Below are positions 607-14,973 of a stretch of DNA of 64,000 nt, in pieces (the first letter of the stretch is position 1; each line of letters begins with the position of its first letter). The notes below the pieces were generated by a model. It saw only the letters and a program-made list of their open reading frames with translations. It was not told the origin of the DNA and did not search any database. Origin of the DNA: Magnetococcales bacterium (GTDB lineage: Bacteria; Pseudomonadota; Magnetococcia; Magnetococcales; JADFYX01). The stretch lies in contig JADFZS010000010.1 in assembly GCA_015232405.1 (NCBI GenBank), positions 1,044-65,043 of the forward strand, in the 5' to 3' direction. A program made the position numbers and the translations under genes.

Positions 607-1191
607 ATGAATAACCTGAGAAGCAAAACCCTCTGCATTTTCTGTGGCTCCTTTTCTGGTGCCGAAGAAGAGTACACCACACAAGCTAAAGCCCTTGGAG
701 AACGTCTTGGTCAAGATGGAGTCAAACTGATTTTTGGAGGTGGAACAACAGGCTTGATGAAGGAGGTTGCCGATGGTTTCTTGGCCCACGCCCCCAAAGA
801 ATGGCTCACGGGAGTGATTCCGAAAACACTGATGGATCGTGAAGGAATACATGAAGGTATCGGTGAATGTCACATAACGGAAAACCTATTAGATCGCAAA
901 ATGTTGATGATCGAGCGCGCTGATGCAGTCATTGCGTTGCCAGGTGGGTTAGGAACCTTTAATGAAATTTTTGAGGTGGCCCTGCTCAATCAACTAAAAC
1001 TGACACAGATTCCTATTTCTCTATTTAATATATTGGGTTATTTCGATCCACTGGATGCACTGTTTCGTGCGACCATGGAAAGAAAATTCTGCGACTTGCA
1101 GGATCTGGACGGCTTGATTATGGATGCAGACCCTGATCGGCTATTAGATAAACTAAACGCTATGTTTGACCCCCAAACTGGATCTAGCTGA
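607..1191 (+). CDS. LOG family protein (TIGR00730-type Rossmann fold; cytokinin riboside 5'-monophosphate phosphoribohydrolase-like)
   Basis: GGGTTGLM and PGGLGTFNE motifs. SD-like AAGAGG lies 6 nt upstream of the ATG. Confidence 0.8.
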   Translation: MNNLRSKTLCIFCGSFSGAEEEYTTQAKALGERLGQDGVKLIFGGGTTGLMKEVADGFLAHAPKEWLTGVIPKTLMDREGIHEGIGECHITENLLDRKMLMIERADAVIALPGGLGTFNEIFEVALLNQLKLTQIPISLFNILGYFDPLDALFRATMERKFCDLQDLDGLIMDADPDRLLDKLNAMFDPQTGSS

Positions 1192-3296
1192 TGTTTTTGG
1201 ATATGGGTGTTGTGGTAGGAGCTTATGCCCTACTGCGCTGGTATGAAAGACAGAGAGATAAGAACGAAGAGCTCATCAGACAGAGTGAAGGGGCGTTGGT
1301 GGTTGTTGATGAGCCAAGTGAAGAGGATCTCTACGGTCAGAGCCAGGTATCAATCCTCAGTGCGGAGGAAGAACGCGAGAAACACCTGCATTTTCTAAAG
1401 GCCAGTGGAGCCACAATCGGTTTAAGCATTTTTAGCTTGATCTATCCACCAGCCATTTATCCCACTTTGGCCCTCTTTACCTACTCAGCCATCCCCTATA
1501 TGCGTGAGGTCGAGAACTCCATATTCGTAAAGAAGAAGGTTGACGGCTGGGTTCTTTATGGCGTTGCAGACATTCTAACTCTGGGTATTGGTCGAATTGG
1601 TACTGCCGCCTTTGCCGTTAGTCTGGTACATACGGCTAAATTTGTCATCAGCCATGCCGAAGACCGTTCCCGAAAGAAATTAATAGATATTTTCGATCAG
1701 CAACCTCGTAATGCGTGGGTTTTGAAGGATGGTTTAGAAATAAAAGTTGATCTGGATCAGATCAATATCAATGATATCGTAGTGGTTAATACTGGGGAGA
1801 TGGTTCCCATAGATGGGGTTGTCACTGAAGGTGTTGCCACCATTGACCAACACAAAATGACAGGTGAGTCGCAGCCAGTTGAGAAGGTGGTCAATGATGA
1901 TGTTTTTGCTGCAACTCTAGTAATAACAGGGCGTATTTTAATTCGCGTCACCAGTTCCGGGCAACAGACGGCAGTTGCTCAGATCACACATATTATCAAC
2001 AAATCTACGGACTTCCAAACAGCCACCCAACTGCGTGGAGAAAAATGGGCAGATAGTTGGAGCAAACCAGTTATGGGGTTGGCGATTGCCAGTGCCCCTT
2101 GGTATGGCATAACGGGATTCATCACAATATTGAATGGTCATATTGCCCAGACCATTCGTTTGACAGCCCCATTGAGCACTCTTAACCATATCAAATATGC
2201 GGCAAACCGGGGGATTCTGATTAAAGATGGTCGGGTTCTAGAAGAGCTGCACAAGATTGATACTATACTGTTTGATAAAACCGGAACGTTGACCAGTGAA
2301 GAGCCAAAAGTTGGCGATATACACTGTTTCAACGATCAATATAACAAAGAAGAGTTACTTGTTTTTGCCGCCGCCACAGAAGGACGTATGGCCCACCCCA
2401 TAGCTCATGCCATCGTCAAGCGCTCTGAGGCTTTGGGGCTTATTTGTCCAGAGGTGGATGATCGTAATTTCCAAGTGGGTAATGGGATCAGTGCAAGTGT
2501 GAATAACAGACTTGTCCAGGTGGGAAGCAAGCGGTTCATGGAGAGTCAGAAAGTCATGCTGCCGGAGGGTCTAGAGGATCTCATGCAGACTAGCCGTGAG
2601 CAGGGACATGCGTTAATTCTAGTGGCTATTGATGGTAAGGTCCAAGGGGCTTTGGAGATTGAGAGCAACATTCGTCCTGAAGTTCATGGTCTTATGAAGC
2701 AGTTGCGTAACCGTGGTGTAAAACATTTGGCTATTGTTTCCGGGGATCATCGTTATCCAACAGAGAAGTTGGCTCGTGAGCTTGGTATGGATGACTATTT
2801 CTACGATGTCCTACCCCAGGACAAGGGGGCATTAGTAGATACTCTTCATGCTGAAGGGCGGACCATCTGTTTTGTCGGTGATGGGGTCAATGATGCCATA
2901 GCCATGAAGAAGGCGGATATTTCCATCTCTTTGAGTGGAGCGACATCCATTGCCACTGATACGGCACAGATCCTACTGATGGATGGTAGTCTTAAGCGGT
3001 TACCGGAATTAATAGACCTATCCCATAGATTGGAAGAAAACCTTCAAAGAGCCTTAAGTTTGAATACAGCTCCAGGTGTAGCAATAGTTTTTGGCACCTT
3101 ACTTTTCAGGATTGATATTTTGGTAGCCATTCTCATTAGCCAATCAGGAATGATGGCAGGTATAGCTAATGCTTACCTACCTTTTGTGGATGAAACATCA
3201 GAGCAAACAACTTCTGCCAAGACAAATAACCCCACCAATCAGGATCAGATAGATTGTGAGACTACACAACGGGACACCCAGCAACCACAGTCGTAG
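1191..3296 (+). CDS. P-type ATPase, heavy-metal (P1B)-like fold but atypical
   Basis: TGES (MTGESQPV), DKTGTLT and GDGVNDAIAMKKAD motifs. The start overlaps the LOG stop (ATGA-type overlap, ctgATG). No CPx motif at the expected TM position and no N-terminal CxxC metal-binding domain. Confidence 0.8.
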   Translation: MFLDMGVVVGAYALLRWYERQRDKNEELIRQSEGALVVVDEPSEEDLYGQSQVSILSAEEEREKHLHFLKASGATIGLSIFSLIYPPAIYPTLALFTYSAIPYMREVENSIFVKKKVDGWVLYGVADILTLGIGRIGTAAFAVSLVHTAKFVISHAEDRSRKKLIDIFDQQPRNAWVLKDGLEIKVDLDQININDIVVVNTGEMVPIDGVVTEGVATIDQHKMTGESQPVEKVVNDDVFAATLVITGRILIRVTSSGQQTAVAQITHIINKSTDFQTATQLRGEKWADSWSKPVMGLAIASAPWYGITGFITILNGHIAQTIRLTAPLSTLNHIKYAANRGILIKDGRVLEELHKIDTILFDKTGTLTSEEPKVGDIHCFNDQYNKEELLVFAAATEGRMAHPIAHAIVKRSEALGLICPEVDDRNFQVGNGISASVNNRLVQVGSKRFMESQKVMLPEGLEDLMQTSREQGHALILVAIDGKVQGALEIESNIRPEVHGLMKQLRNRGVKHLAIVSGDHRYPTEKLARELGMDDYFYDVLPQDKGALVDTLHAEGRTICFVGDGVNDAIAMKKADISISLSGATSIATDTAQILLMDGSLKRLPELIDLSHRLEENLQRALSLNTAPGVAIVFGTLLFRIDILVAILISQSGMMAGIANAYLPFVDETSEQTTSAKTNNPTNQDQIDCETTQRDTQQPQS

Positions 3297-3388
3297 GTGG
3301 GTGTCACTTTAGGAAACCATATTTATCCAAATATAGATGGCCCACTAACTTTGACTTCTTGTTGGGCATTATCTTTACATTTATCCAG

Positions 3389-4693
3389 TTAGTTGACAAC
3401 GCTATCATTTTCACGATCATGATTTTCACATTGACTGATTCCGACGGGTCTGGATTGTTTTACTGGTTTGTTGTCTAAAGTTTGGAATGTAAACCCTTCT
3501 GGCCTCAACCATTTGATCATGTAATCTTTGTCTTTTATATCACCATTCTCCTGAAAAGATATTGGACCTGTAAGGCCCTGACAGGCATTCATAAAACGAA
3601 TTTCATCGGCAATTTTGCTAGACTCTGATGTGCCGATTTTTTGAATTGTCTTTAGCAAAATATTGATCGTGTCATACTCAATTGCTGCCAATCTGTCTGG
3701 TGGTTGACCAAATTCATTGCGGAATTTTTTTGCAAAAACAGAATTCTCTGGAAGCCGATAGTCGAACATTGTTGGAACAGCGACATTGGCAAATAATTTA
3801 CTCTCTTCTTGCCACTTTTTGATGTTATCCCAAAATACAATGGAATCCAAACCTTCGCCGCCAATGAATGGTATATCCTTGATCCCTCTCCCTCTAAATT
3901 CCTTAATGATTCTTTCTGCCATCGAAGTGCTGGTAAATAAAAATATAGCATCCACTGAATTTTTATTCTGTAACTCTCTTGTGTTCATAGCGTATGTGGT
4001 GAGTTCCCGCTGTGGGGTGCTAGTGAAAAAAGAGCGTTGGCTTGCTACTTTAATCTCATATTTCTCCGATGCAGCTTGGGAAAAAGCTTTACTTAGCTCA
4101 AGAGCATAATCACTACTTTCATTATAGATCACCACATTTTCATACTTGTTTTGATGTGCAAATCTTGCTAACTGATTGCCAAGTACCACATTAGTGGGAA
4201 GCATTCGGTAAAGATTGTTAAAATTCATGGTGGTGAGAATAACGTTGGTGGCGTTAGGAGTTATAAACAACATGTTACTCTGCTGGTAAATCAGTGAGGC
4301 TGAAAATGCCAATTCTGAAAAAGAGTGCCCTGTGACCGCCACCACCTGGCTGGAATGATTGGAAAAATCCCTGGCAACTGTGCGTGTGTACTCCTTGATA
4401 CTGTCTCCGGCAGTCAAAATGGAGGTGGTTTCCAATATCTTGAAAACTGCTTCTTCTCGCTCATCAATGATAAGTTCTATTTTCTGCCCCAATACTCCAC
4501 CGGACTTGTTGGCCTCTTTAACTGCCAATTTAGCCCCTTCAACGAACAATCCTCTACCTTGGGGCCATGCCACGCCAATGGTGATCGTACCATCTTCATG
4601 GTATTCTTTTTGATTCGAATTTAGATTGCACCCAGCAAGGTATAGAAGAGCCAAACAGAAATAGGTGATTTTCACAAATATATGGTTCAACAT
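3389..4693 (-). CDS. Periplasmic ligand-binding lipoprotein, type-1 PBP (Leu/Ile/Val-binding-like ABC substrate-binding family)
   Basis: Signal peptide with lipobox LAGC. Overall similarity pattern to the LivJ-type fold (GVAWPQ..., VVAVTGHSFS, IPFIGGEGLD). Confidence 0.65.
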   Translation of the reverse strand: MLNHIFVKITYFCLALLYLAGCNLNSNQKEYHEDGTITIGVAWPQGRGLFVEGAKLAVKEANKSGGVLGQKIELIIDEREEAVFKILETTSILTAGDSIKEYTRTVARDFSNHSSQVVAVTGHSFSELAFSASLIYQQSNMLFITPNATNVILTTMNFNNLYRMLPTNVVLGNQLARFAHQNKYENVVIYNESSDYALELSKAFSQAASEKYEIKVASQRSFFTSTPQRELTTYAMNTRELQNKNSVDAIFLFTSTSMAERIIKEFRGRGIKDIPFIGGEGLDSIVFWDNIKKWQEESKLFANVAVPTMFDYRLPENSVFAKKFRNEFGQPPDRLAAIEYDTINILLKTIQKIGTSESSKIADEIRFMNACQGLTGPISFQENGDIKDKDYMIKWLRPEGFTFQTLDNKPVKQSRPVGISQCENHDRENDSVVN

Positions 4694-5039
4694 TTTGTAC
4701 TTAGACCTTTACCAGCTTGTAATTAAATATAATTCAGTAACTTAAAAGCACCACAACCAATTTTGAAAAAATGGATAGGTACATCTCCTGAATATATCAA
4801 GCTTTATATTTAGAGTATCTTTTTATTAACAAGAAATCCCGATACAGTAGCAATAAATTTTCCTTATTCATAGCACAACTGAAATTTGTTCGATCAGATG
4901 GTTATTGGTGATTGCTCTTGATAGCATATGAATATCTCAAAATTATTTGTTGATATTTGTTCCATTAACACAAAGTATAAGGTATAAATAGAGATATTCA
5001 TTTGTTTTACCGCTACTGGAAAAACAAATTTTTTCTTTT

Positions 5040-5645
5040 ATGCTTATAAAAGGAGCACAATTTGTGGCTAAACTTGACGAAAAGCAATCAGACAACACTA
5101 ACGACGAAGAGAAATCTTCTAGCACTTCAAAACAGACTGCTCATGAAAAACGAAAAGAGCAGACAGCCGCAACAATTAAAAAATATACAGCTGGAGCAAT
5201 GGCAGTTGGGGTGGTTCCGTTTCCTCTCTTAGACTTGGCCGCTCTAGCAGCAATCCAACTCAAGATGCTACACAGTCTATCAAAAATCTATGATGTTGAA
5301 TTTGAAGCTAGCCTGGGCAAATCGGCTGTAAGTAGTTTGGCAGGCGGTGTCGCATCGGTATCTGGAGCCGCTCCACTAGCAGCCAGCCTGACCAAATTCA
5401 TCCCTGTTGTTGGTCATGCCTTATCATATACTTCTCTGGTTGTACTCAATGGAGCCAGCACATTTGCCATTGGTAAAGTGTTTGAACAACATTTCGCTTC
5501 AGGGGGTACATTCTTAACGTTTGATCCAACAAAAGTACGTGAATATTTTACAGAACAGTTTGAAAAAGGTAAAAAGCTCGTTACCGAAATGGGTGAAAAA
5601 TCTAAATCAAAACCTAAAATGGAACCAGCAACTGCAACCAAGTAA
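5040..5645 (+). CDS. DUF697 (YcjF-like) membrane-associated protein
   Basis: Ala/Gly-rich hydrophobic core (GAMAVGVVPFPLLDLAALAAIQLKMLHSLSKIY...) typical of DUF697. An alternative GTG start at 5064 sits behind an AAGGAG SD. Confidence 0.5.
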   Translation: MLIKGAQFVAKLDEKQSDNTNDEEKSSSTSKQTAHEKRKEQTAATIKKYTAGAMAVGVVPFPLLDLAALAAIQLKMLHSLSKIYDVEFEASLGKSAVSSLAGGVASVSGAAPLAASLTKFIPVVGHALSYTSLVVLNGASTFAIGKVFEQHFASGGTFLTFDPTKVREYFTEQFEKGKKLVTEMGEKSKSKPKMEPATATK

Positions 5646-5706
5646 AAATCTATGCTGTTTTAATTGATTTTTATTGCTAACCATATAACGATATAGGCAT
5701 TAAACC

Positions 5707-5859
5707 ATGAAGAAAACATCTGAAAAGAAACCACCCGTTACTACCAGCACACCAAAATCGAGTACAACCAAGCGTCCTGGACTGTCCAAACGCACAAATA
5801 TCAAAGCAGGTGGCTTCTGGGAAGACCTTAAAGCGTTATATCCAAGCTTCTCCAAGTAA
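5707..5859 (+). CDS. Candidate 50-aa secreted-peptide precursor with internal Gly-Gly (not in the ORF track)
   Basis: Hand translation gives MKKTSEKKPPVTTSTPKSSTTKRPGLSKRTNIKAGG-FWEDLKALYPSFSK. It lies directly upstream of the HlyD-like/C39-ABC genes and is followed by a hairpin plus T-run. The SD is weak and the leader fits the canonical double-glycine consensus poorly. Confidence 0.35.
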   Translation: MKKTSEKKPPVTTSTPKSSTTKRPGLSKRTNIKAGGFWEDLKALYPSFSK

Positions 5860-5865
5860 TACACC

Positions 5866-5906
5866 CCCTCCCCCTTTTCTTACCCGATTAGGGGGCTTCT
5901 TTTTTA
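5866..5906 (+). terminator. Possible intrinsic terminator/attenuator after the small ORF
   Basis: CCCCC (5870-5874) pairs with GGGGG (5891-5895) and is followed by CTTCTTTTTT. The loop is large (16 nt). Confidence 0.35.
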
Positions 5907-6013
5907 ATACAGCTCAAAAGGATCTTTTTCTTCCAAGCCTTGGATTGGTCTGTATTTCTGTGTTCTTCATAAACAAATGTTTGCATGATAAACATTTAAC
6001 TTTTCATTAATCT

Positions 6014-6529
6014 ATGGCTATACCATTTTCGGAAACTACCAGATCACTGAATGCTGATAAAAATACCTTCATTTCGTTGTGGTTGGTATTTTCAGCACTG
6101 ATCTTGTTTTTATGGGGAGCATGGTTTTTTGCAGGTAGCATTTATCATTATGTTGGTAGCCAACGAGTTACCATTACCAAAGAGCCGCACCCAACTTGGC
6201 GCTTGGATGATAACAAAGGCTTGGTGAAGCCCTATCATCGTTACCTGGTAGAAACCCAATTTGATAAGGAGGATCTGTCACTTATTCATCCTGGTCAACG
6301 CATATCCATTCACACAGATAATAGTTCCGCCACTTCCCAGAGTCCTTATAGCAGTCTAATCGAGAAAGTTGACCAAAAATCAGGCTTGGTACAGACTATA
6401 TTGGAGATACCTGCTGATAAACCACCTCAACTAACAGGTTTATCCACACGAGCTGAGGTAACTGTTTCTCAGCAAACTCCAGCCGCCTTTATGTTTCACA
6501 TAGTATCTCGGGAAAACAAGAACCCGTGA
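6014..6529 (+). CDS. Short HlyD-family periplasmic adaptor-like protein (lacks the coiled-coil hairpin)
   Basis: N-terminal single TM (FISLWLVFSALILFLWGAWFF) and a C-terminal barrel-sandwich-like segment (HPGQRISIHTD...). At 171 aa it is much shorter than typical HlyD. Its TGA overlaps the GTG of the next gene. Confidence 0.55.
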   Translation: MAIPFSETTRSLNADKNTFISLWLVFSALILFLWGAWFFAGSIYHYVGSQRVTITKEPHPTWRLDDNKGLVKPYHRYLVETQFDKEDLSLIHPGQRISIHTDNSSATSQSPYSSLIEKVDQKSGLVQTILEIPADKPPQLTGLSTRAEVTVSQQTPAAFMFHIVSRENKNP

Positions 6530-9249
6530 ATGCTTCCGAACGTCGTTTTTTCATCCCAGAAGTTATCCAAAGCTCCATGATGGACTGTGGCCCTGCGGCT
6601 CTCAAAGCCATGCTGAATGGTTTTGATATACCAGTTAACTATGGTCGATTGCGAGAGGCATGTCAGACTGATGTGGATGGCACCTCAATTGATACCATGG
6701 AAGATTTGGCAATACAGTTAGGTCTGGATGCAGAGCAACTAATTACTCCGGTTGATCATGTATTAATCCCTGAGGCTAAAACTCTACCAGCATTAATCGT
6801 TGTAAAACGCCCCAATGGATCAACTCATTTTATAATAATCTGGCGATTGTTTTTGGGATGGGCACAGATTATGGACCCCTCAACTGGACGCCACTGGGTT
6901 CGTACTGAAACCTTATCCGATCGGTTTTATCAACATAGCCAAGCTGTCAGTACCATTGATTGGCTGGAGTGGGCATCTTCAGAGATGTTTATCAATGTTT
7001 TACGGGCACGTTTGCTAAATGTTTGTATAGACCCGGATTGGGCAGAAGCCTGTTTAAAAAAGTGCACAAATAATGAGAGCTGGTATCCTCTGGCTAGTTT
7101 GGATGCCGCTACACGCATGGTTACCTCTCTTATCAATGCTAAAGGTATTAAGCCTGGAAAAGAGGCAGGGGAGCTTATCAACCGTTTTTTTCTCAATCCT
7201 GAGGAAATCCCCAAAGGTTATTGGTCCGTTCATGCCTTACCAGAAGATGAGGATACCCTCTTATTCAAAGGAGCCGTTATAATACACAGTACGGGCCTGG
7301 CCGAACCTGTTATTGCAGAAAGATACATTGAATCTATAGATAAACAGAATGCTGAAGAAGAAAAAGAAAAAACAGCCTCACCCTACTCACCTGAATTATC
7401 TGCAGCTATGAATGAAGAGGTTTCTCACCCAGAACGCCACATTTTATCAGCTATGCGAGAAGATGGCTTTTTTACCCCAACCATACTTATAATTTGTGCG
7501 ATATTGGCTGGTGTTGGAATTACTCTTGAAGTTCTTGTGTTACGTAATTTGATGGAGATCAATCAACAAACCCAACTCATGTCACAACAGTTGCAAACCT
7601 TTGGGCTGGTTATTCTATTTTTCATATCTTTATTGATACTTGAGTGGCCTTTAGCACTGCTATCCCGCCAAGCAGGTAAATATCTAGAAGTTCGCTTACG
7701 ATTGCGCTTTCTAAAAAAACTGCCACACCTCGAAGACCGTTATTTCCATAGCCGCTTAACTTCGGACATGATCCAGCGTGCTTACGATTTACGTGAAATA
7801 TCTAATCTTCCAAATTTGGGGGTCAATTTTTTACGTATACTGGCGCAAATTATCCTTATCACCATAGGGTTGACAGTGATCTACCCAGAAGGTACAGGCC
7901 GAGTTATTTTCAGTTGTGCAGTCGTTATTTTATTAGCTTTCTTGTCCCAACCATGGTTACAAGAAAAAGATATGCAGTTTCGGACACATGTGGGAAGCCT
8001 CAGTCGTTTTTATTTGGATGCATTACTGGGTATTGTTCCTATTCGGAGTCATGGTGCTACACAAGCAATTCAAACACAACATGAACGATTATTACTTGAT
8101 TGGTTCCGAACTGGACGAGATTTTTTTAGAACTTTTGAATACATCTCACTGTTAAATTTTTTAATCAGTACCGGACTGTCCATATGGCTAGTTCACTCTT
8201 ATTTAAATATTGATAGGGATAGCAGTGTAACTTTGGTATTGCTGTATTGGTTGCTCCAACTTCCACAACTGGGAAACCAGTTAGCTGAAAGCACCCAACA
8301 GTATCCAACATTGCGTAATCGTCTTTTGCGACTTCTAGAACCACTTTCTGCACCCGATGAAAGTCACTCTTGGTACTCCGCCGATCAGCACCGCCCAACC
8401 AATGTAGTATCTCCTGGAGAAAGTAAAGAAAAGAAACTTGGAGTTAGCATCAATTTTCACCAAGTTAACCTGATATTATCAGGCCGAGAGATTTTGCAAG
8501 ATCTGAATGTCAATTTGGCTTCTGGAGAACATGTAGCGATAGTGGGAAAATCAGGAGCTGGAAAATCCAGCTTAGTGGGATTGTTGTTAGGATGGCATCG
8601 ACCTGCTACTGGCGGTACTGTTTGGGTGGATGGTGAATTACTCCACGGATCACGCCTGGAACAGTTACGTCAAGAGTCCGTGTGGGTAGATCCTGAAGTA
8701 CAATTATGGAACCGATCGTTAGCGGACAATATTAACTATGGAAAAGAGAAAGGTAGCGACATCTCAGCCGAAATTTGGAGTCAGTCAGAACTTTTAGATA
8801 TGCTCCAATTCTTACCTGATGGTGATCAAACTATATTGGGTGAAAATGCAGGGCTACTTTCTGGTGGTGAGGGGCAACGGGTACGGTTGGGTCGTGGATT
8901 AAATAGGAACAACGCACGATTGGTTATCCTTGACGAACCATTTCGAGGCTTGACCCGCCACCAACGAAGCCAGTTATTAGGTAAAATTCGTCTCTTTTGG
9001 CAGAATGTTACTCTATTATTTATTAGCCATGATGTATCAGATACAAAAGGTTTTGATCGTACATGGGTAGTTCATGAAGGTCGTTTGGTTGAAGATGCAC
9101 CACCACATGAGTTAGCTGCTAATCCAAACTCTCATTATTCACAATTATTGGAAGCTGAACAAAGTCTACATAAATTAATTTGGAATCGTATTGACTGGAC
9201 AAAGTTATACCTGGAAAATGGTCAATTAACAGTTAGTTCAAAACGATAA
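6526..9249 (+). CDS. ABC exporter with N-terminal C39 cysteine peptidase domain (bacteriocin/peptide-processing type)
   Basis: C39 catalytic region MMDCGPAALKAML and GSTHFIIIW. Walker A GKSGAGKSSL, signature LSGGEGQRVRL and Walker B LVILDEPF. Six-TM region between residues ~310 and 600. Confidence 0.85.
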   Translation: MNASERRFFIPEVIQSSMMDCGPAALKAMLNGFDIPVNYGRLREACQTDVDGTSIDTMEDLAIQLGLDAEQLITPVDHVLIPEAKTLPALIVVKRPNGSTHFIIIWRLFLGWAQIMDPSTGRHWVRTETLSDRFYQHSQAVSTIDWLEWASSEMFINVLRARLLNVCIDPDWAEACLKKCTNNESWYPLASLDAATRMVTSLINAKGIKPGKEAGELINRFFLNPEEIPKGYWSVHALPEDEDTLLFKGAVIIHSTGLAEPVIAERYIESIDKQNAEEEKEKTASPYSPELSAAMNEEVSHPERHILSAMREDGFFTPTILIICAILAGVGITLEVLVLRNLMEINQQTQLMSQQLQTFGLVILFFISLLILEWPLALLSRQAGKYLEVRLRLRFLKKLPHLEDRYFHSRLTSDMIQRAYDLREISNLPNLGVNFLRILAQIILITIGLTVIYPEGTGRVIFSCAVVILLAFLSQPWLQEKDMQFRTHVGSLSRFYLDALLGIVPIRSHGATQAIQTQHERLLLDWFRTGRDFFRTFEYISLLNFLISTGLSIWLVHSYLNIDRDSSVTLVLLYWLLQLPQLGNQLAESTQQYPTLRNRLLRLLEPLSAPDESHSWYSADQHRPTNVVSPGESKEKKLGVSINFHQVNLILSGREILQDLNVNLASGEHVAIVGKSGAGKSSLVGLLLGWHRPATGGTVWVDGELLHGSRLEQLRQESVWVDPEVQLWNRSLADNINYGKEKGSDISAEIWSQSELLDMLQFLPDGDQTILGENAGLLSGGEGQRVRLGRGLNRNNARLVILDEPFRGLTRHQRSQLLGKIRLFWQNVTLLFISHDVSDTKGFDRTWVVHEGRLVEDAPPHELAANPNSHYSQLLEAEQSLHKLIWNRIDWTKLYLENGQLTVSSKR

Positions 9250-9341
9250 TTTTTTTTATATTATTAATAGCTATAAGGCGCTATCTTTTTTCTGCCTCTG
9301 TATATGAAAGATAATATTGCCCCATCAATTAGATTACCTCT

Positions 9342-11462
9342 ATGTCTGTAACTCAACTGACTTGGCCACACTCACGCCTACATGATGCTCTACCATTGTT
9401 AGCTAGACATGTTGGGTTTTCATCTGCTATCACCCCCCCTACTGCTTTATCTGAAGATGACCATTCTGCGGAAACCATCCACCATTGGTTAGAAAATACA
9501 GCTACTTGGATGGGTGTGGAATTTCTGGCAGTGGGAACAACATATCCAGAGTTAGAAACCATGTTGGCTCACGCTGGACCCGCAATAATTGAAATTCCAG
9601 TGAGAGAAGGTCGTGGTTTTCTTCTGCTTATTTCTGGAAATCGTCGCCGACTTACCCTGCTAGGAGAAGATGGCAAAAAACATAAGGTTCTACTTAAAGA
9701 AGTCCGAGAGCTCCTCACCAACCATCTGGAAGCTCCCCTCAGGCCAGCCATGGAAAAAATGGTTCAAGAGTTGGATATTCCTGAACATCGCCGAGAAAAA
9801 ATATTTCAATCACTGTTAAGTGAGCAACTTAGCAGTGTACATATTGGTCGCTCTTTTTGGCTGTTACGCTTATCACCAGCAGATGATTTTTGGAAACAAC
9901 TTCGTCATGCCGGATTTGTAAGAAAAGCAGCTGTTATTTTCACCAGCACGATAGCTTTTCAATTGCTCATATTATTATCCTGGGCAGTGATTGGTAAATC
10001 TATAATTTATAGCAATAGTTTTAGCGGTGCCACTGAAATATGGTCGCTACTATTATTGACAGCCATCCCCCTTCAAGTATTCAGCATTTATAAGAAAAAT
10101 CAGATTTCTCTAGATTTTGGTGCTCATCTACGCAATCGATTGTTAGATGGCATTCTCCAGCTCAAATCAGAAGAGGTTCGCCACCAGGGTAGTGGGCACT
10201 TTCTTGGCTACATAATGGACATTGAGATATTGGAGGGACAAAGCCTGACTATGGTGTTTGCCTCTCTCATCTCATTTATTCAAATCCTATCAGCCATTAT
10301 CATCCTGATGCTGGGGGCCGGGGGCTTGTTGCATGGAATGCTGTTATTGGGTTATTTTATCTTTCTTCTCTATATATCCTATAAGTTCTACCTTGGTTCC
10401 GGGCAACAATTGGCTCATTACCGTAAAATGAGCTGTGATCTGGCAGAACGCATGATTGGACATCGTACTCGACTTTCACAGGATAATCCAAAGTATCGCC
10501 ATACCGAAGAAGATGCTCTATTGGCTCGTTATATACCACTGAGCAAACGGCAAATGAAATTCATCGCCTTTATGGAAGGTGTCGGTCGACGTGGATGGCT
10601 TCTACTCTCTATAATAGCTCTTCTTCCAGAACTTACTTCGGCTCAACCTGATATTGGCTCGTTGGCCATAAGCTTAGGCGGCACTCTTTTGGCTGCCACT
10701 GCTCTCAACCAGTTTGTAATAAGCCTCCGTAATATTTTACGGGCATCACAAGCCTGGAAACAGCTGACCCCCTTATACCACAGCTCAACTAGACGACGAT
10801 ATCAAAAACCACCTCCTTTCATCCCTGACGCTCAAATTGATCACTTGGCAAAGTCAAACTCATTGATTCAAGGAGAAAAGCTAGAGTTTTCTTATTACAA
10901 TCGCACAATTTTAAACCGCTGTTCTCTAAAAGTTGAAAGAGGTCAACGTCTACTGTTGGAAGGTCCCTCTGGAGGTGGAAAATCTACTTTAGCCGCACTT
11001 TTAGCCGGTTTACGCCAGCCAAAAAATGGAACAGTGTCACTATTTGGCCTTAACTGGGAGCAATTGGGAGAAAAAGCCTGGAGACAACGGGTAGTGATCA
11101 CTCCTCAATTCCATGAAAACCATGTCATTACCGACACATTTGCCTTTAACCTGCTCATGGGTCGCCCCTGGCCACCATCAAGACAAGATTTGCTAGAAGC
11201 TAGAACTATTTGCCAGGAACTAGATTTAGGCGACCTCTTGGAAAAAATGCCTGCAGGAATGGAACAAATGGTTGGAGAGTCTGGCTGGAGACTCTCTCAT
11301 GGTGAACGTAGCCGTCTATATATTGCTAGAACCTTACTGCAAAAAGCTGATTTGATCATCCTTGATGAGAGTTTTGCTGCCCTTGATCCAAAAACCTTGA
11401 AAATTGCCCTCGATTGCGTTTTGCGTAGAAGTAAGACACTATTGCTCATCACACACCCATGA
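9342..11462 (+). CDS. ABC exporter, permease/ATPase fusion with Cys-less N-terminal (C39-like?) domain
   Basis: Walker A GPSGGGKSTL, signature variant LSHGERSRL and Walker B LIILDESFAALD. The ~170-aa N-terminal cytoplasmic domain has no catalytic Cys. Confidence 0.8.
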   Translation: MSVTQLTWPHSRLHDALPLLARHVGFSSAITPPTALSEDDHSAETIHHWLENTATWMGVEFLAVGTTYPELETMLAHAGPAIIEIPVREGRGFLLLISGNRRRLTLLGEDGKKHKVLLKEVRELLTNHLEAPLRPAMEKMVQELDIPEHRREKIFQSLLSEQLSSVHIGRSFWLLRLSPADDFWKQLRHAGFVRKAAVIFTSTIAFQLLILLSWAVIGKSIIYSNSFSGATEIWSLLLLTAIPLQVFSIYKKNQISLDFGAHLRNRLLDGILQLKSEEVRHQGSGHFLGYIMDIEILEGQSLTMVFASLISFIQILSAIIILMLGAGGLLHGMLLLGYFIFLLYISYKFYLGSGQQLAHYRKMSCDLAERMIGHRTRLSQDNPKYRHTEEDALLARYIPLSKRQMKFIAFMEGVGRRGWLLLSIIALLPELTSAQPDIGSLAISLGGTLLAATALNQFVISLRNILRASQAWKQLTPLYHSSTRRRYQKPPPFIPDAQIDHLAKSNSLIQGEKLEFSYYNRTILNRCSLKVERGQRLLLEGPSGGGKSTLAALLAGLRQPKNGTVSLFGLNWEQLGEKAWRQRVVITPQFHENHVITDTFAFNLLMGRPWPPSRQDLLEARTICQELDLGDLLEKMPAGMEQMVGESGWRLSHGERSRLYIARTLLQKADLIILDESFAALDPKTLKIALDCVLRRSKTLLLITHP

Positions 11463-11475
11463 GGAAAACCGATAA

Positions 11476-12417
11476 ATGAACAATATAAACAACTCTTCAT
11501 CAGGCCAAAACAGCACTATTCCTCAACCAAAACCCCATCGTGGTATATTAAAACGTATACGTGAAATGCTCTGGGATAAATTGCCCTATTTTATATTATT
11601 TGGCTTTCTTATCACTCTGACGACAATCTTCCTTTGGAATCGTATAGTTATCTTTGTCGAAGCCGGAGAAGGCGGTGTTCTTTACCGACCTCTATTGGGA
11701 GAGGGTGTCATAACCGACCGGGTTTATTCTGAAGGAATGTATATTCTCTTTCCTGTTAATACTCTGACACGTTACAACACAAGGGTGCAAATTCTCCGTA
11801 CTGAATTTGATGTTCTTACCAACCGCGGCCTCCCAGTCACATTGAAATTGGCTATACGTTACCGGCCTATTTTTGAGCTTCTAGGTGTACTCCATCAACG
11901 AGTAGGTCCCAACTACCCCAATAAAATTATTATTCCACAAATTGAATCTGTATTGCGTAAAGGATTGGGGAAACATTCACCAGAAGAAATATATACAAAC
12001 AAAGGTTTATTGCTAAGTAAGTTGATTGCGCAAGCTATTGAGGAGGTAGGACGAAAATATGTAATCGTTGACGACATAATTATTCGTAGCGTTAGCCTTC
12101 CTCATGAAGTTAAGAGAGCCATTGAAAAAAAACTAATTGAAGAACAACGTTTCCTCTCCTACACCTTCCGTTTACAGACAGAAATAAAAGAGGCTGAACG
12201 CAAACGTATTGAGTCAAAAGGAATCAGGGACTTTTCTGAAAATTTGAAAGCCAGTGTGACTGCCAATGTGTTGCGCTGGAAAGGAATTGATGCAACACTC
12301 AAACTAGCTTCATCACCAAATTCCAAAATAGTCATCATAGGTGGGCAAAAAGATGGTATGCCATTGATGCTCAATGCAGGTAATTGGTCTGATTTAACTC
12401 AAAAACCCCAACAATAA
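11476..12417 (+). CDS. SPFH/Band-7 (prohibitin/HflC-like) membrane protein
   Basis: N-terminal TM followed by an SPFH-like core (VEAGEGGVLYRP..., ...QIESVLRKGLG..., EAERKRIESKGI). It starts 13 bp after the ABC gene stop. Confidence 0.75.
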   Translation: MNNINNSSSGQNSTIPQPKPHRGILKRIREMLWDKLPYFILFGFLITLTTIFLWNRIVIFVEAGEGGVLYRPLLGEGVITDRVYSEGMYILFPVNTLTRYNTRVQILRTEFDVLTNRGLPVTLKLAIRYRPIFELLGVLHQRVGPNYPNKIIIPQIESVLRKGLGKHSPEEIYTNKGLLLSKLIAQAIEEVGRKYVIVDDIIIRSVSLPHEVKRAIEKKLIEEQRFLSYTFRLQTEIKEAERKRIESKGIRDFSENLKASVTANVLRWKGIDATLKLASSPNSKIVIIGGQKDGMPLMLNAGNWSDLTQKPQQ

Positions 12418-12501: not shown

Positions 12502-12666
12502 ATGCACACTTCCATTTTAATAATACTGTTTGCCAGCTTGATTGTTGGCTATCTTGGCCGTCATCGAAAAATGGGGTTTTGGGGATATTTTTTTGGTTCC
12601 ATACTATTAACGCCATTTGTCGGATTAATTCTATTAGCTGCATCCGGGCCGAAACAAAAGGATTAA
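12502..12666 (+). CDS. Small (54 aa) two-TM membrane protein, hypothetical (not in the ORF track)
   Basis: Hand translation gives MHTSILIILFASLIVGYLGRHRKMGFWGYFFGSILLTPFVGLILLAASGPKQKD, i.e. two hydrophobic helices separated by a basic loop. Confidence 0.4.
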   Translation: MHTSILIILFASLIVGYLGRHRKMGFWGYFFGSILLTPFVGLILLAASGPKQKD

Positions 12667-12962: not shown

Positions 12963-13076
12963 TCATACTTAACTATTAACAGTTATAGAGATAATGCCAT
13001 GAATGAGATCTCTGACCTAACTGTTAATGAAAAGAGACTTCTGATGGCAATGGTAGCGAGGTGGGATGATGAGTAA
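12963..13076 (+). pseudogene. 3' remnant of a RelE/HigB2-like (COG4737-type) toxin gene
   Basis: The frame reads SYLTINSYRDNAMNEISDLTVNEKRLLMAMVARWDDE*, resembling the C-terminal ...YLLxIYxKxxxxDLTxxEkxxL tail of these toxins. A stop codon lies immediately upstream (12960). It overlaps the antitoxin start by 11 nt, as in intact TA pairs. Confidence 0.4.
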
Positions 13077-13389
13077 AAAACGCAATTTGTTTGATGAACT
13101 GAGTCAGTCTATTGATGAAGCACAACAGTTCGATTCTGGCAAAATCACTCTTAAGACAACTAAAGTCGAAGCACAACCACCATTGCATATTGATGCTAAG
13201 ACTGTTCTGGAAACCAGAGAGTCTCTCCATTTATCCAGAGGGGTTTTTGCTCGTTGGTTAAGGGTCTCTCCCAGAACATTGGAAAACTGGGAACAAGGAA
13301 GATCTAGACCCAATTCTCAAGCTGCAGCTTTGATCCTTATGATACGTAAATTTCCTGATACCGTAGATCGGTTAGCTGTTTTATCATAG
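13066..13389 (+). CDS. HTH (XRE-type) antitoxin-like regulator, COG2944/HigA2/NadS-like
   Basis: The C-terminal HTH LSRGVFARWLRVSPRTLENWEQGRSRPNSQAAALI contains the WEQGRxxP signature of this family. Size is 107 aa. Confidence 0.75.
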   Translation: MMSKKRNLFDELSQSIDEAQQFDSGKITLKTTKVEAQPPLHIDAKTVLETRESLHLSRGVFARWLRVSPRTLENWEQGRSRPNSQAAALILMIRKFPDTVDRLAVLS

Positions 13390-13644: not shown

Positions 13645-14973
13645 ATGAATTCAACAGTCAAAGGTAACAAGCTCGAAAATGAAATATTTAATCTATTTTC
13701 TAAAATGATCTTGGAAAATAGATTTTTATGGCTAAAAAGTGAATGCTGTCAGATTCGAAGAAAACATGGGTACTATTCAAAAGATAGAGAAAAAAATATC
13801 ATATTCGATATTTCAGTTGAGATAACCCTACCAGGACAAGACAAATATTCACAACTAATCCTAATTGAGTGTAAAAATTACGAGCGCAAAGTTGAGTTTA
13901 GCGACGTACAAAACTTCCATTCAGTAACTCAGCAAGTTGCTTCATCAAACTCAAAATCAATTATCGTTTCAACTAATGCTTTTAATGATGGAGCTTTTAA
14001 ATTTGCAAAATCAAAAGGAATAGGGTTACTTCGCTACTTTTACTCTGATGAGCTACAATGGGTACTTGCTCGATCACCTTCTAGTATGAATCCATTGCTT
14101 TCATTTGATACTGACTATTTAAATTCTTCCTCCCATGTAATGTGCCAACAAGATATTAAAAGCAAATACTTTGATTGCCACGGATACTCATACGGTAAAT
14201 ATACAACATCATTGAACGAATTTCTGTATCGATTAGTAAATGTAGGAGCAAGTGAGAACTTTAAAAAACATTTTACCAATGTCGAAGATAAATTAAAGTC
14301 AAAGACTCGGTTAGTGCCATTCATAGCAAACAAAAAAATTGAGGCAATAAGTCAAAAAATTTTACAAAATGTCAGTTATACTAAAGGCCCTACCCCACTG
14401 GATAAAATTTGCAAAAAATTATCCGAAGATACTGGTCTAGAATTGCTACAAAACACAACCCTTGCTAAAGGCGCATTAGGGAGCATCTCGTTTGATCCAA
14501 TTGTAATCAAGTTAGCTGAGGCCCATGCAGAGGATGAGTATAGGGCGAGGTTTACTTTAGCTCATGAAATTGGTCATTTAATTCTAGAACATGGTAAGTA
14601 CATGAAAAAAGAACTGTGTCATGAATCAGATTTGGACATAGAAAATCCACGATTGATCGGAATTCAAGATATTGAACGGATGGAATGGCAAGCAAACTAT
14701 TTTGCTTCGTACCTCCTTCTACCTGAAAAACAGTTGAAGGAGTCATTTTATTTATTGGTTAAAAAGTATTCCTTGATTAATCGTGGACATGGTGTGCTTT
14801 ACGTTGACAATCAAAAATGCAACAAGGACACATATTATGGCATTACAAATCGATTAAAAAAAGAGTTTAAAACTTCTCGTAGTGCATTTCAGATACGTCT
14901 CAGGAATCTTGGGCTTCTTACCGATTTTGCGTCAATGAACTACAAACTCTCAGGACACTCATTTAATTCTTGA
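13645..14973 (+). CDS. Fusion protein: N-terminal PD-(D/E)xK (Mrr-like) nuclease domain and C-terminal ImmA/IrrE (M78) zinc metallopeptidase domain
   Basis: N-terminal D...ExK pattern (IFDISVE...LILIECKNY). C-terminal HExxH (LAHEIGHLILEH) followed by WQANYFASYLLLP, typical of ImmA/IrrE. Strong SD AAGGAG. AT-rich codon usage. Confidence 0.7.
   Translation: MNSTVKGNKLENEIFNLFSKMILENRFLWLKSECCQIRRKHGYYSKDREKNIIFDISVEITLPGQDKYSQLILIECKNYERKVEFSDVQNFHSVTQQVASSNSKSIIVSTNAFNDGAFKFAKSKGIGLLRYFYSDELQWVLARSPSSMNPLLSFDTDYLNSSSHVMCQQDIKSKYFDCHGYSYGKYTTSLNEFLYRLVNVGASENFKKHFTNVEDKLKSKTRLVPFIANKKIEAISQKILQNVSYTKGPTPLDKICKKLSEDTGLELLQNTTLAKGALGSISFDPIVIKLAEAHAEDEYRARFTLAHEIGHLILEHGKYMKKELCHESDLDIENPRLIGIQDIERMEWQANYFASYLLLPEKQLKESFYLLVKKYSLINRGHGVLYVDNQKCNKDTYYGITNRLKKEFKTSRSAFQIRLRNLGLLTDFASMNYKLSGHSFNS

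Follow-up and report, generated by a model that had tools for sequence, protein, structure and literature searches.

A probable peptide-export operon with a hairpin-less HlyD-type adaptor and a linked SPFH gene in a Magnetococcales bacterium

The window analyzed here, a 64-kb stretch of DNA from a metagenome-assembled genome (MAG) of a Magnetococcales bacterium, carries a conserved operon of four genes. These encode a 171-residue adaptor of the HlyD type (the mini-adaptor), an ATP-binding cassette (ABC) half-transporter with an N-terminal C39 peptidase (ABC1), a second half-transporter with a cysteine-free N-terminal domain (ABC2) and a protein of the SPFH (prohibitin-type) family. A small open reading frame (ORF) upstream of the adaptor gene is the likely substrate gene. 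In the reading that we hold to be fairly probable, the set constitutes a dedicated heterodimeric pump of the peptidase-containing ABC transporter (PCAT) kind, which would process the adjacent peptide and export it, by way of the mini-adaptor, to the periplasm, with the SPFH protein as a scaffold or regulator. The features of the system in the window are as follows.

5707-5859, + strand: candidate precursor peptide of 50 amino acids (aa), designated by its conserved motif and position
5870-5905, + strand: terminator-like hairpin (CCCCCU...AGGGGG, then CUUCUUUUUU), directly after the small ORF
6014-6529, + strand: mini-adaptor gene, 171 aa
6526-9249, + strand: ABC1 gene, 907 aa, GTG start
6526-6951, + strand: C39 peptidase domain of ABC1 (aa 1-142), from the AlphaFold2 (AF2) model, Foldseek and the invariant triad
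6952-7299, + strand: extra subdomain of ABC1 (aa 143-258), from the AF2 model (per-block predicted local distance difference test, pLDDT, above 94)
9166-9249, + strand: C-terminal extension of ABC1 past the canonical end of the nucleotide-binding domain (NBD), ending ...IWNRIDWTKLYLENGQLTVSSKR
9342-11462, + strand: ABC2 gene, 706 aa
9342-9716, + strand: likely C39-like domain (CLD) of ABC2 (aa ~1-125), from hhalign against the ABC1 C39 profile
11476-12417, + strand: SPFH gene, 313 aa, 13-bp gap after ABC2
12502-12663, + strand: fifth gene, 53 aa with two predicted transmembrane (TM) helices (...GYLGRHRKMGFWGYFFGSILLTP...)

All four ORFs that an earlier note on this DNA had described as a tightly packed or overlapping set were found in place, all on the + strand, and the GTG start of ABC1 shares the sequence GTGA with the stop codon of the mini-adaptor gene. 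An equivalent gene order was observed in the Magnetococcales bacterium HHB-1 (locus L001), in Candidatus Electrothrix (L003) and in further loci, which include one from Chloroflexota (L007). Because the order recurs in these loci, the arrangement is not due to chance, and the four-gene set is a real, conserved operon, which probably continues to the 53-aa gene. No outer-membrane factor gene is present within the operon of the window, as the earlier note had also claimed. A promoter scan returned 21 sites, compared with 21.4 expected, and therefore makes no case either way for an internal promoter in front of the SPFH gene.

The mini-adaptor has no direct match in Pfam or NCBIfam, including the HlyD_3 and Biotin_lipoyl_2 models, and a word-indexed protein search with its sequence matched the protein itself alone. 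Its identity emerged only from an exhaustive phmmer search, from profiles and from structure. The phmmer search yielded 64 representative clusters, mostly of 150-190 aa, together with weaker matches of ~390 aa that bear HlyD_3, HlyD_D23 and Biotin_lipoyl_2 domains. Against the PDB, the family profile matches MacA and EmrA in their beta-barrel domains (E 0.04-0.3). The AF2 model, built from 27 sequences (pLDDT 88), is composed of an N-terminal helix, a TM helix (aa 18-40), an eight-strand beta-barrel and a C-terminal helix; in this model the N-terminal helix is predicted to be cytoplasmic and the barrel periplasmic. The modeled protein contains neither a lipoyl domain nor an alpha-hairpin, and its top structural neighbors in Foldseek were ZneB, MacA, BesA, MexA, EmrA and HlyD (7sgr, from the HlyB/D complex). 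With respect to the features of HlyD and other membrane fusion proteins, the mini-adaptor possesses the TM anchor and a homologous barrel, and lacks the lipoyl domain and the hairpin. Sequence profile, fold and comparison with full-length partners thus concur with the minimal, hairpin-less HlyD of the earlier note.

Related exporter loci, including that of Archangium (L008) and many metagenome loci, encode a normal HlyD of ~390-400 aa, and comparison with these proteins revealed the origin of the short form. In hhalign, aa 78-171 of the mini-adaptor align with aa 280-382 of the full-length partners (probability 99.8%, E 8e-29), and ~35 residues separate the TM helix of the mini-adaptor from this barrel segment. 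The N-terminal consensus MxxPFSxTxRSLxAD...WGxWFF is common to short and full-length adaptors. From the barrel alignment and the shared N-terminal consensus it follows that the short form arose by internal loss of ~225 residues, which correspond to the lipoyl domain and alpha-hairpin, while the N-terminal tail, TM helix and barrel were kept. The mini-adaptor is therefore a conserved deletion derivative of the ~390-aa HlyD of its own exporter family. In a neighbor-joining tree of ABC2, the loci with short adaptors form one clade, with the exception of L022, which was scored as carrying a mini-adaptor and was placed inside the clade with full-length HlyD. The 170-aa ORFs that adjoin ABC2 in L090 and L005 were considered as further members and were rejected; they are not mini-adaptors.

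The domain order of ABC1 is C39 peptidase, extra subdomain, linker, transmembrane domain (TMD), full NBD and C-terminal extension. Pfam recognized Peptidase_C39 (PF03412) at aa 13-134 with 60 bits (cut-off 22), ABC_membrane with 30.7 bits (cut-off 28) and ABC_tran with 81 bits. The catalytic triad, Cys21, His101 and Asp117, is invariant in 47 homologues. The AF2 model of aa 1-340 was of high quality (pLDDT 91; predicted template-modeling score, pTM, 0.84), and its C39 domain matched the peptidase domains of PCAT1, LahT150 and ComA in Foldseek (E down to 6e-8, TM-score 0.78, root-mean-square deviation 2.3-2.8).

Residues 350-880 of ABC1 align to PCAT1 (4ry2), with residue 205 of PCAT1 opposite residue 350 of ABC1, and position 156 of TIGR03796, the ABC1 model of the NHLM systems, aligns with residue 322. 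Relative to both, ABC1 carries an extra segment of ~150-180 residues. These alignments and the AF2 model bear out the addition of ~180 aa that had been noticed in the C39-ABC protein from its sequence. In the model, the extra subdomain (~115 aa) packs on the C39 domain and consists of a helical bundle (aa 143-223) against which a long beta-hairpin (aa 235-258) is packed. Next come a linker modeled with low confidence (aa ~260-290), an elbow helix and TM1. Foldseek aligned isolated C39 domains over only ~130 residues, so that no match was seen to cover the extra subdomain. The extra segment is found in more than 500 proteins (38-50% identity) of Acidobacteriota, Myxococcota, Chloroflexota, Planctomycetota and other groups, and in 120 of these homologues the region was seen to be conserved with few gaps. 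The search with the first 436 residues of ABC1 returned no self-match, although the mini-adaptor and ABC2 of the same MAG are in the collection; ABC1 of the window may be annotated differently there or be missing from it.

In ABC2, Pfam recognized ABC_tran only. Its first 205 residues contain no cysteine, in agreement with the earlier description of an N-terminal domain without a catalytic Cys. When this domain was compared with the C39 domain of ABC1 by hhalign, the two aligned in register (E 1.1e-4, probability 57%), with the catalytic Cys21 replaced by Arg12 and His101 by Gly92. Its profile also gave a weak match in the PDB to the PCAT1 peptidase domain 7n87 (E 0.37). With this moderate support from both comparisons, the N-terminal domain of ABC2 is likely to be a non-catalytic CLD.

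The other end of ABC2 is equally distinctive. The protein stops one residue past the H-loop histidine (...LLLITHP, then the stop codon), and ~75 full-length orthologues (P0002-P0075), together with the metagenome loci, all end in ...[AT]H[PR] (...IAHP or ...ITHP before the stop codon). Alignments of ABC2 to NCBIfam ABC models accordingly stop 36-45 positions before the ends of the models. The signature motif of ABC2 is LSHGE, and both ABC1 and ABC2 have canonical Walker A, Walker B-Glu and H-loop motifs. The two genes are adjacent in about 35 loci, and this constant adjacency, together with the asymmetry of ABC2 (likely CLD, LSHGE and cut NBD), suggests from sequence that ABC2 forms a heterodimer with ABC1. 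The C-terminal extension of ABC1 has the consensus W..WRRLRLEDGRL.E in all 35 full-length ABC1 sequences surveyed and resembles the beta-hairpin that follows the H-loop of ABC1 itself (FDRVLVVE.GRIVEDG); 16 of the 35 tails scored above the 95th percentile of shuffled tails against the hairpin profile. ABC1 may donate its tail hairpin in trans to the truncated NBD of ABC2.

The candidate precursor reads MKKTSEKKPPVTTSTPKSSTTKRPGLSKRTNIKAG followed by GFWEDLKALYPSFSK; a Lys-rich N-terminal extension leads to a ...KRTNIKAG motif, and the core GFWEDLKALYPSFSK comes after it. Orthologous small ORFs, with motif and core conserved, occur at the equivalent position in HHB-1, where ...KTNIKAG is followed by DFWEDLRSLYPDF, and in Electrothrix, where ...QSQIKAG is followed by GFWEDMRALYG. 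None of the small ORFs scanned matched an NCBIfam model, and the peptide of the window has no Pfam match either. Beside homologous pumps, small ORFs of the form MK[VI]KT.x[KR][AG]G were observed, often in tandem, with a leader of ten residues and short hypervariable cores. The motif [IVL][KR][AG]G, which closes leaders of the MKxKTxxKAG type, was found in 29 small ORFs in 17 of 87 loci, compared with 0-3 in reversed or shuffled controls. Tandem copies number four in L083, three each in L085 and L014, and two each in Archangium and L091. The long-leader variants of L010 and L007 end in TNVRAG or IRAG. On the basis of this motif and its position, the ORF at 5707-5859 is the likely substrate gene, and cleavage is predicted after ...IKAG. 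Literature searches with strings for the leader motifs returned nothing relevant from the open-access literature, to which they were confined.

The leader-type ORFs lie, among other places, at 5197-5595 in L008, 5932-6335 in L083, 14250-14607 in L085 and 1701-1871 in L091, and also occur in L014 and L086. Three further loci (L068, L084 and L089) encode apparent multi-core precursors; leader-like units (LKVKTNVKAGG...) are repeated within some of these precursors, which suggests multi-core peptides. Several cores share a C-terminal CVGI after stretches rich in Ser, Gly and Thr (L043 4372-4560, L070 4395-4547 and L079 3492-3662).

The hairpin directly after the peptide gene folds in the window with -13.4 kcal/mol and a modest z-score of -1.64; the terminator scan did not call it because of the size of its loop. 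The corresponding hairpin is strong in Electrothrix, where it is followed by a U-run (z -3.65), is present in L007 and is not evident in HHB-1. Lying between the peptide gene and the exporter genes, it may serve as an attenuator.

In the SPFH protein, Pfam Band_7 (PF01145) was recognized at aa 61-242 with 84.4 bits (cut-off 23.6), the nearest solved structures are prohibitin-2 and prohibitin-1 (E 8e-10), and a single N-terminal TM helix is present. By the positive-inside rule, the N-terminus is predicted to be inside, with the SPFH domain in the periplasm. Assignment to HflK or HflC was considered and rejected, with scores of 15.3 and 15.8 against NCBIfam equivalog cut-offs of 134.4 and 159.4, respectively.

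The gap of 13 bp between ABC2 and the SPFH gene, as given in the earlier note, and the Band_7 identity of the product were both confirmed. The note had also asked how often SPFH genes lie beside such ABC pairs and had allowed that the linkage might not be conserved; the survey found the adjacency conserved across phyla. In six independent loci (the window, HHB-1, Electrothrix, L023, L090 and L092), an SPFH gene comes immediately after ABC2, at gaps of -47 to 133 bp: the genes overlap in HHB-1 and are separated by 9 bp in Electrothrix, 22 bp in L090 and 110 bp in L092. In L092, the SPFH gene stays with ABC2 although ABC1 is not adjacent. In two more loci an SPFH gene is found near ABC2, at 0.8 kb in L007 and at 4.7 kb in L009. 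The SPFH-linked loci span at least three phyla (Magnetococcales, Desulfobacterota, represented by Electrothrix, and Chloroflexota) and also include unassigned metagenomes. Among loci with a known adaptor type and 1.5 kb or more of sequence 3' of ABC2, an SPFH gene was present in five and absent from four of those with a mini-adaptor, and was present in none and absent from 18 of those with a full-length HlyD. A further locus with full-length HlyD, L091, also lacks an SPFH gene. The SPFH gene was seen only in the mini-adaptor clade.

The product of the fifth gene carries a GRHRKMGFWGYFFGS motif. Its orthologues adjoin the SPFH gene of Electrothrix, L090 and HHB-1, which makes four loci with the window, and no Pfam family matched it above cut-off.

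These features support a mechanism in which the C39 domain of ABC1 and its family-specific subdomain would recognize the basic leader of the small peptide, and the peptidase would cut after ...IKAG, freeing a core of ~15 residues. The ABC1-ABC2 pair would carry this core across the inner membrane. The Cys-less CLD of ABC2 would be expected to dock the substrate or the adaptor and not to cleave, and the cytoplasmic tail, TM helix and membrane-proximal barrel of the adaptor would contact the pump. Since the lipoyl domain and hairpin were lost, delivery would most likely be to the periplasm and not through a duct of the TolC type. The SPFH protein and the 53-aa membrane protein would have been recruited 3' of ABC2 in the mini-adaptor clade, where their most plausible role would be that of an oligomeric scaffold or cage that faces the periplasm and organizes or regulates the pump.

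Several points weigh against this mechanism. The system in the window is known from genes, profiles and predicted structures alone, and the statistics behind the CLD of ABC2 are weak (E 1e-4 with a probability of 57%, and E 0.37). The peptidase LahT150 needs hydrophobic residues at positions -4, -7 and -12 of its leaders (PMC6363468). In the leader type of the present system the hydrophobic residue at -4 is kept, position -7 is a Lys and there is no residue at -12; across the leaders, the residue at -2 is usually Ala rather than Gly. This deviation from the LahT150 rules may explain the extra subdomain of the C39 domain. With its long Lys-rich extension and conserved core, the peptide of the window is also unlike typical bacteriocins. 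Two loci, L005 from Mariprofundaceae and L006 from Parabeggiatoa, contain a lone ABC2 with no partners nearby; their genes are dispersed, or the MAG contigs are fragmented. L010 encodes a mini-adaptor, ABC1 and ABC2, yet has no SPFH gene within 10 kb downstream. Finally, the Fisher test on the association between SPFH gene and adaptor type gives a p of about 0.002 with phylogeny ignored.

Among the alternatives, it is unlikely that the peptide leaves the cell, either because the mini-adaptor couples to an unlinked outer-membrane component or because the peptide crosses the outer membrane otherwise; the destination would then be unaffected by the loss of the hairpin. An unlinked TolC is common in type I systems, the sister clade with full-length HlyD presumably secretes out of the cell, and the Electrothrix cluster includes a lipoprotein with an OmpA domain. 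However, of the periplasmic parts the adaptor keeps the membrane-proximal barrel alone, while in solved tripartite pumps it is the alpha-hairpin that contacts the outer-membrane factor, and no outer-membrane factor gene was present in the mini-adaptor loci inspected. We consider it rather improbable that the SPFH and 53-aa genes are merely neighbors with a general role in membrane quality control, beside a pump that would still be a peptide exporter. SPFH genes are common and frequently occupy small operons of their own, and both the missing SPFH gene of L010 and the looser spacing in L007 and L009 would fit such a view. It does not account well for the close succession of ABC2 and SPFH genes in six independent loci, for their association in L092 even without an adjacent ABC1, for the lack of an SPFH gene beside all 18 loci with full-length HlyD, or for the recurrence of the linkage in at least three phyla.

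A different identity for the pump itself has far less in its favor. The best NCBIfam scores of ABC1 and ABC2 are to CydC/CydD, which could indicate a CydDC-like or a lipid or thiol exporter, in which the C39 domain would have a regulatory role and the small ORF would encode no substrate. These scores lie far under the cut-offs (137.6 against 329 for ABC2 and 152 against 435 for ABC1) and derive mostly from the NBD, the C39 triad is invariant, and the neighborhood of the pumps is strongly enriched in leader-type ORFs; we therefore regard this identity as very improbable. The earlier note had also raised the possibility of a truncated pseudogene, and since related systems have a ~390-aa HlyD, the 171-aa gene might be a decayed, non-functional remnant in a degenerating operon. 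This is practically negated by the 64 representative clusters of similar short length with conserved motifs and no disruptions, by the compact and confident AF2 fold, by the overlap of the mini-adaptor stop with the ABC1 start, and by the monophyly of the short form and its presence in several phyla.

A bolder proposal, which we think quite doubtful, is that the system represents a distinct class of machine. The ABC1 tail (W..WRRLRLEDGRL) would then substitute for the beta-hairpin that is missing after the H-loop of every ABC2, and this strand donation would hold the heterodimer together. An SPFH cage would stand in place of the TolC duct, the peptide would pass into this periplasmic chamber, and the clustered binding protein, which is a putative lipoprotein in relatives and is OmpA-fused there, would capture the conserved 15-residue peptide. 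If this were true, the distinct class would be a self-contained device for periplasmic peptide signaling or peptide loading, and not a secretor of bacteriocins.

The binding protein just mentioned is one of several conserved neighbors upstream of the system, which are listed below.

1191-3296, + strand: P1B-type P-type ATPase (TIGR01525, 397 bits, cut-off 346)
3389-4693, - strand: periplasmic binding protein (Pfam ANF_receptor/Peripla_BP_6)
5040-5645, + strand: membrane protein of the DUF697 (YcjF-like) family (Pfam DUF697)

The three closest loci all have a DUF697 gene just ahead of the peptide gene (4916-5497 in HHB-1 and 3336-3911 in Electrothrix), and HHB-1 has a second copy (14191-14748) after its SPFH gene. 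Homologues of the binding protein (5838-7664 in HHB-1 and 4260-6614 in Electrothrix) are found between the peptide gene and the mini-adaptor gene. Both homologues carry calcium-binding TSP3 repeats as a fusion, and the Electrothrix protein additionally has an OmpA peptidoglycan-binding domain; the protein in these relatives is a putative lipoprotein. Homologues of the P1B ATPase (31-36% identity) adjoin the system in HHB-1 (2433-4646) and L007 (3242-5455). The ATPase is thus a recurrent neighbor, and its link to the system is uncertain. In the TM segment that precedes DKTGT in these ATPases, the usual metal-binding CPx motif is apparently replaced (by APL or APF; it is absent in L007), which suggests an atypical substrate.

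Three further observations concern the surroundings of the loci. The Electrothrix cluster is flanked by polyphosphate kinases, PPK1 upstream (999-3206) and PPK2 downstream (18699-19616); the N-terminal half of the peptide in the window is very rich in Lys. Downstream in the window, an Xre-type helix-turn-helix protein (13066-13389) is followed by a protein with Mrr_cat and IrrE/Peptidase_M78 domains (13645-14973), in a stretch of lower G+C content (~35%), which could be a defense or mobile-element module. In L010, the mini-adaptor and ABC1 are separated by a 1.2-kb spacer with short GC-rich palindromes in several copies (region 4600-5500; for example GCCAGGGGCAACGCCCC and GCCCTAAAGGGCAC), which resemble repetitive extragenic palindromic elements.

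The wider exporter family, which counts more than 400 metagenomic relatives, extends over Acidobacteriota, Myxococcota, Chloroflexota, cable bacteria and magnetotactic bacteria, and none of its proteins, including ABC1 and ABC2, reaches the cut-off of any NCBIfam model. The combination of mini-adaptor and SPFH protein was not found in the NCBI curated family library or in the open-access literature searched. That library of literature, which is incomplete, likewise returned no association of SPFH, C39 and ABC proteins and no heterodimeric PCAT of a similar type, and no description of the H-loop-cut NBD, the ABC1 tail or the MKxKTxxKAG leader family was found in the open-access sources searched.

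SPFH proteins are ubiquitous, and to our knowledge few bacterial clients are known beyond FtsH; the conserved genetic coupling of an SPFH protein to an ABC exporter offers a concrete candidate client. The mini-adaptor, a natural minimal HlyD, reveals the part of a membrane fusion protein that the pump cannot do without. It also points to an apparent switch, in evolution, from secretion across the envelope to a different output. The exporter family and its MKxKTxxKAG leaders provide a new handle for the mining of peptide natural products, and the H-loop-cut partner NBD, together with the hairpin-like tail of ABC1, is an unusual case for the mechanism of ABC transporters.

Among known systems, membership in the NHLM, CydDC and HflK/C families was rejected, as all of them fail the curated cut-offs. 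The system shares with the PCAT proteins, also termed AMS proteins (PCAT1 of Clostridium thermocellum, ComA and LahT), the Cys-His-Asp triad and fold of the C39 domain, the TMD of type I exporters, the NBD, and a neighboring candidate gene for a small peptide with a Gly-ended leader. The solved PCATs are homodimers, in contrast to the present system, in which a second, non-catalytic half-transporter stands alongside. Moreover, the C39 domain of ABC1 bears the additional folded subdomain of ~115 aa, and the leader is of the short, basic MKxKTxxKAG type, without the hydrophobic residues at -7 and -12 of LahT150 substrates.

The NHLM/Nif11-type export sets, to which the earlier note had likened the operon, similarly combine an adaptor of the HlyD type, a C39-ABC protein and a second ABC protein without an active peptidase, and the sister clade with full-length HlyD has exactly this three-gene layout. 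The likeness stands for the architecture, but neither for family membership nor for the leader type. ABC1 scores 145.7 against a cut-off of 853.3 (TIGR03796) and ABC2 scores 105.7 against 709.4 (TIGR03797), while the 171-aa protein has no match to TIGR03794, to which even the full-length partner HlyD scores only 32.4 against 156.2. With scores so far under the cut-offs of all three NHLM models, the resemblance is one of architecture only. ABC2 also lacks the last ~43 positions of TIGR03797, and the precursors do not carry an NHLP or Nif11 leader; their leaders are ~10 aa long or Lys-rich, whereas the NHLP/Nif11 domains comprise ~70 aa.

The HlyB/HlyD system is comparable in that a dead C39-like domain, a likely one in ABC2, is carried by an ABC half-transporter and in that the adaptor has an N-terminal helix, a TM helix and a membrane-proximal barrel. 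It differs in that both subunits of the HlyB homodimer carry a CLD and neither has an active peptidase, and in that the long, TolC-docking helical domain of HlyD is absent from the mini-adaptor. Another hairpin-less adaptor is BesA of Borrelia, which was among the Foldseek matches. BesA keeps its lipoyl, barrel and membrane-proximal domains and has an RND pump as its partner, whereas the mini-adaptor keeps one barrel only and is partnered by an ABC pair. With the HflK/C-FtsH complex and the prohibitin cages, the SPFH protein has in common the Band_7 domain and the single N-terminal TM helix, and its operon partnership with a membrane machine is analogous; by this analogy, the client would here be an ABC exporter in place of an AAA protease.

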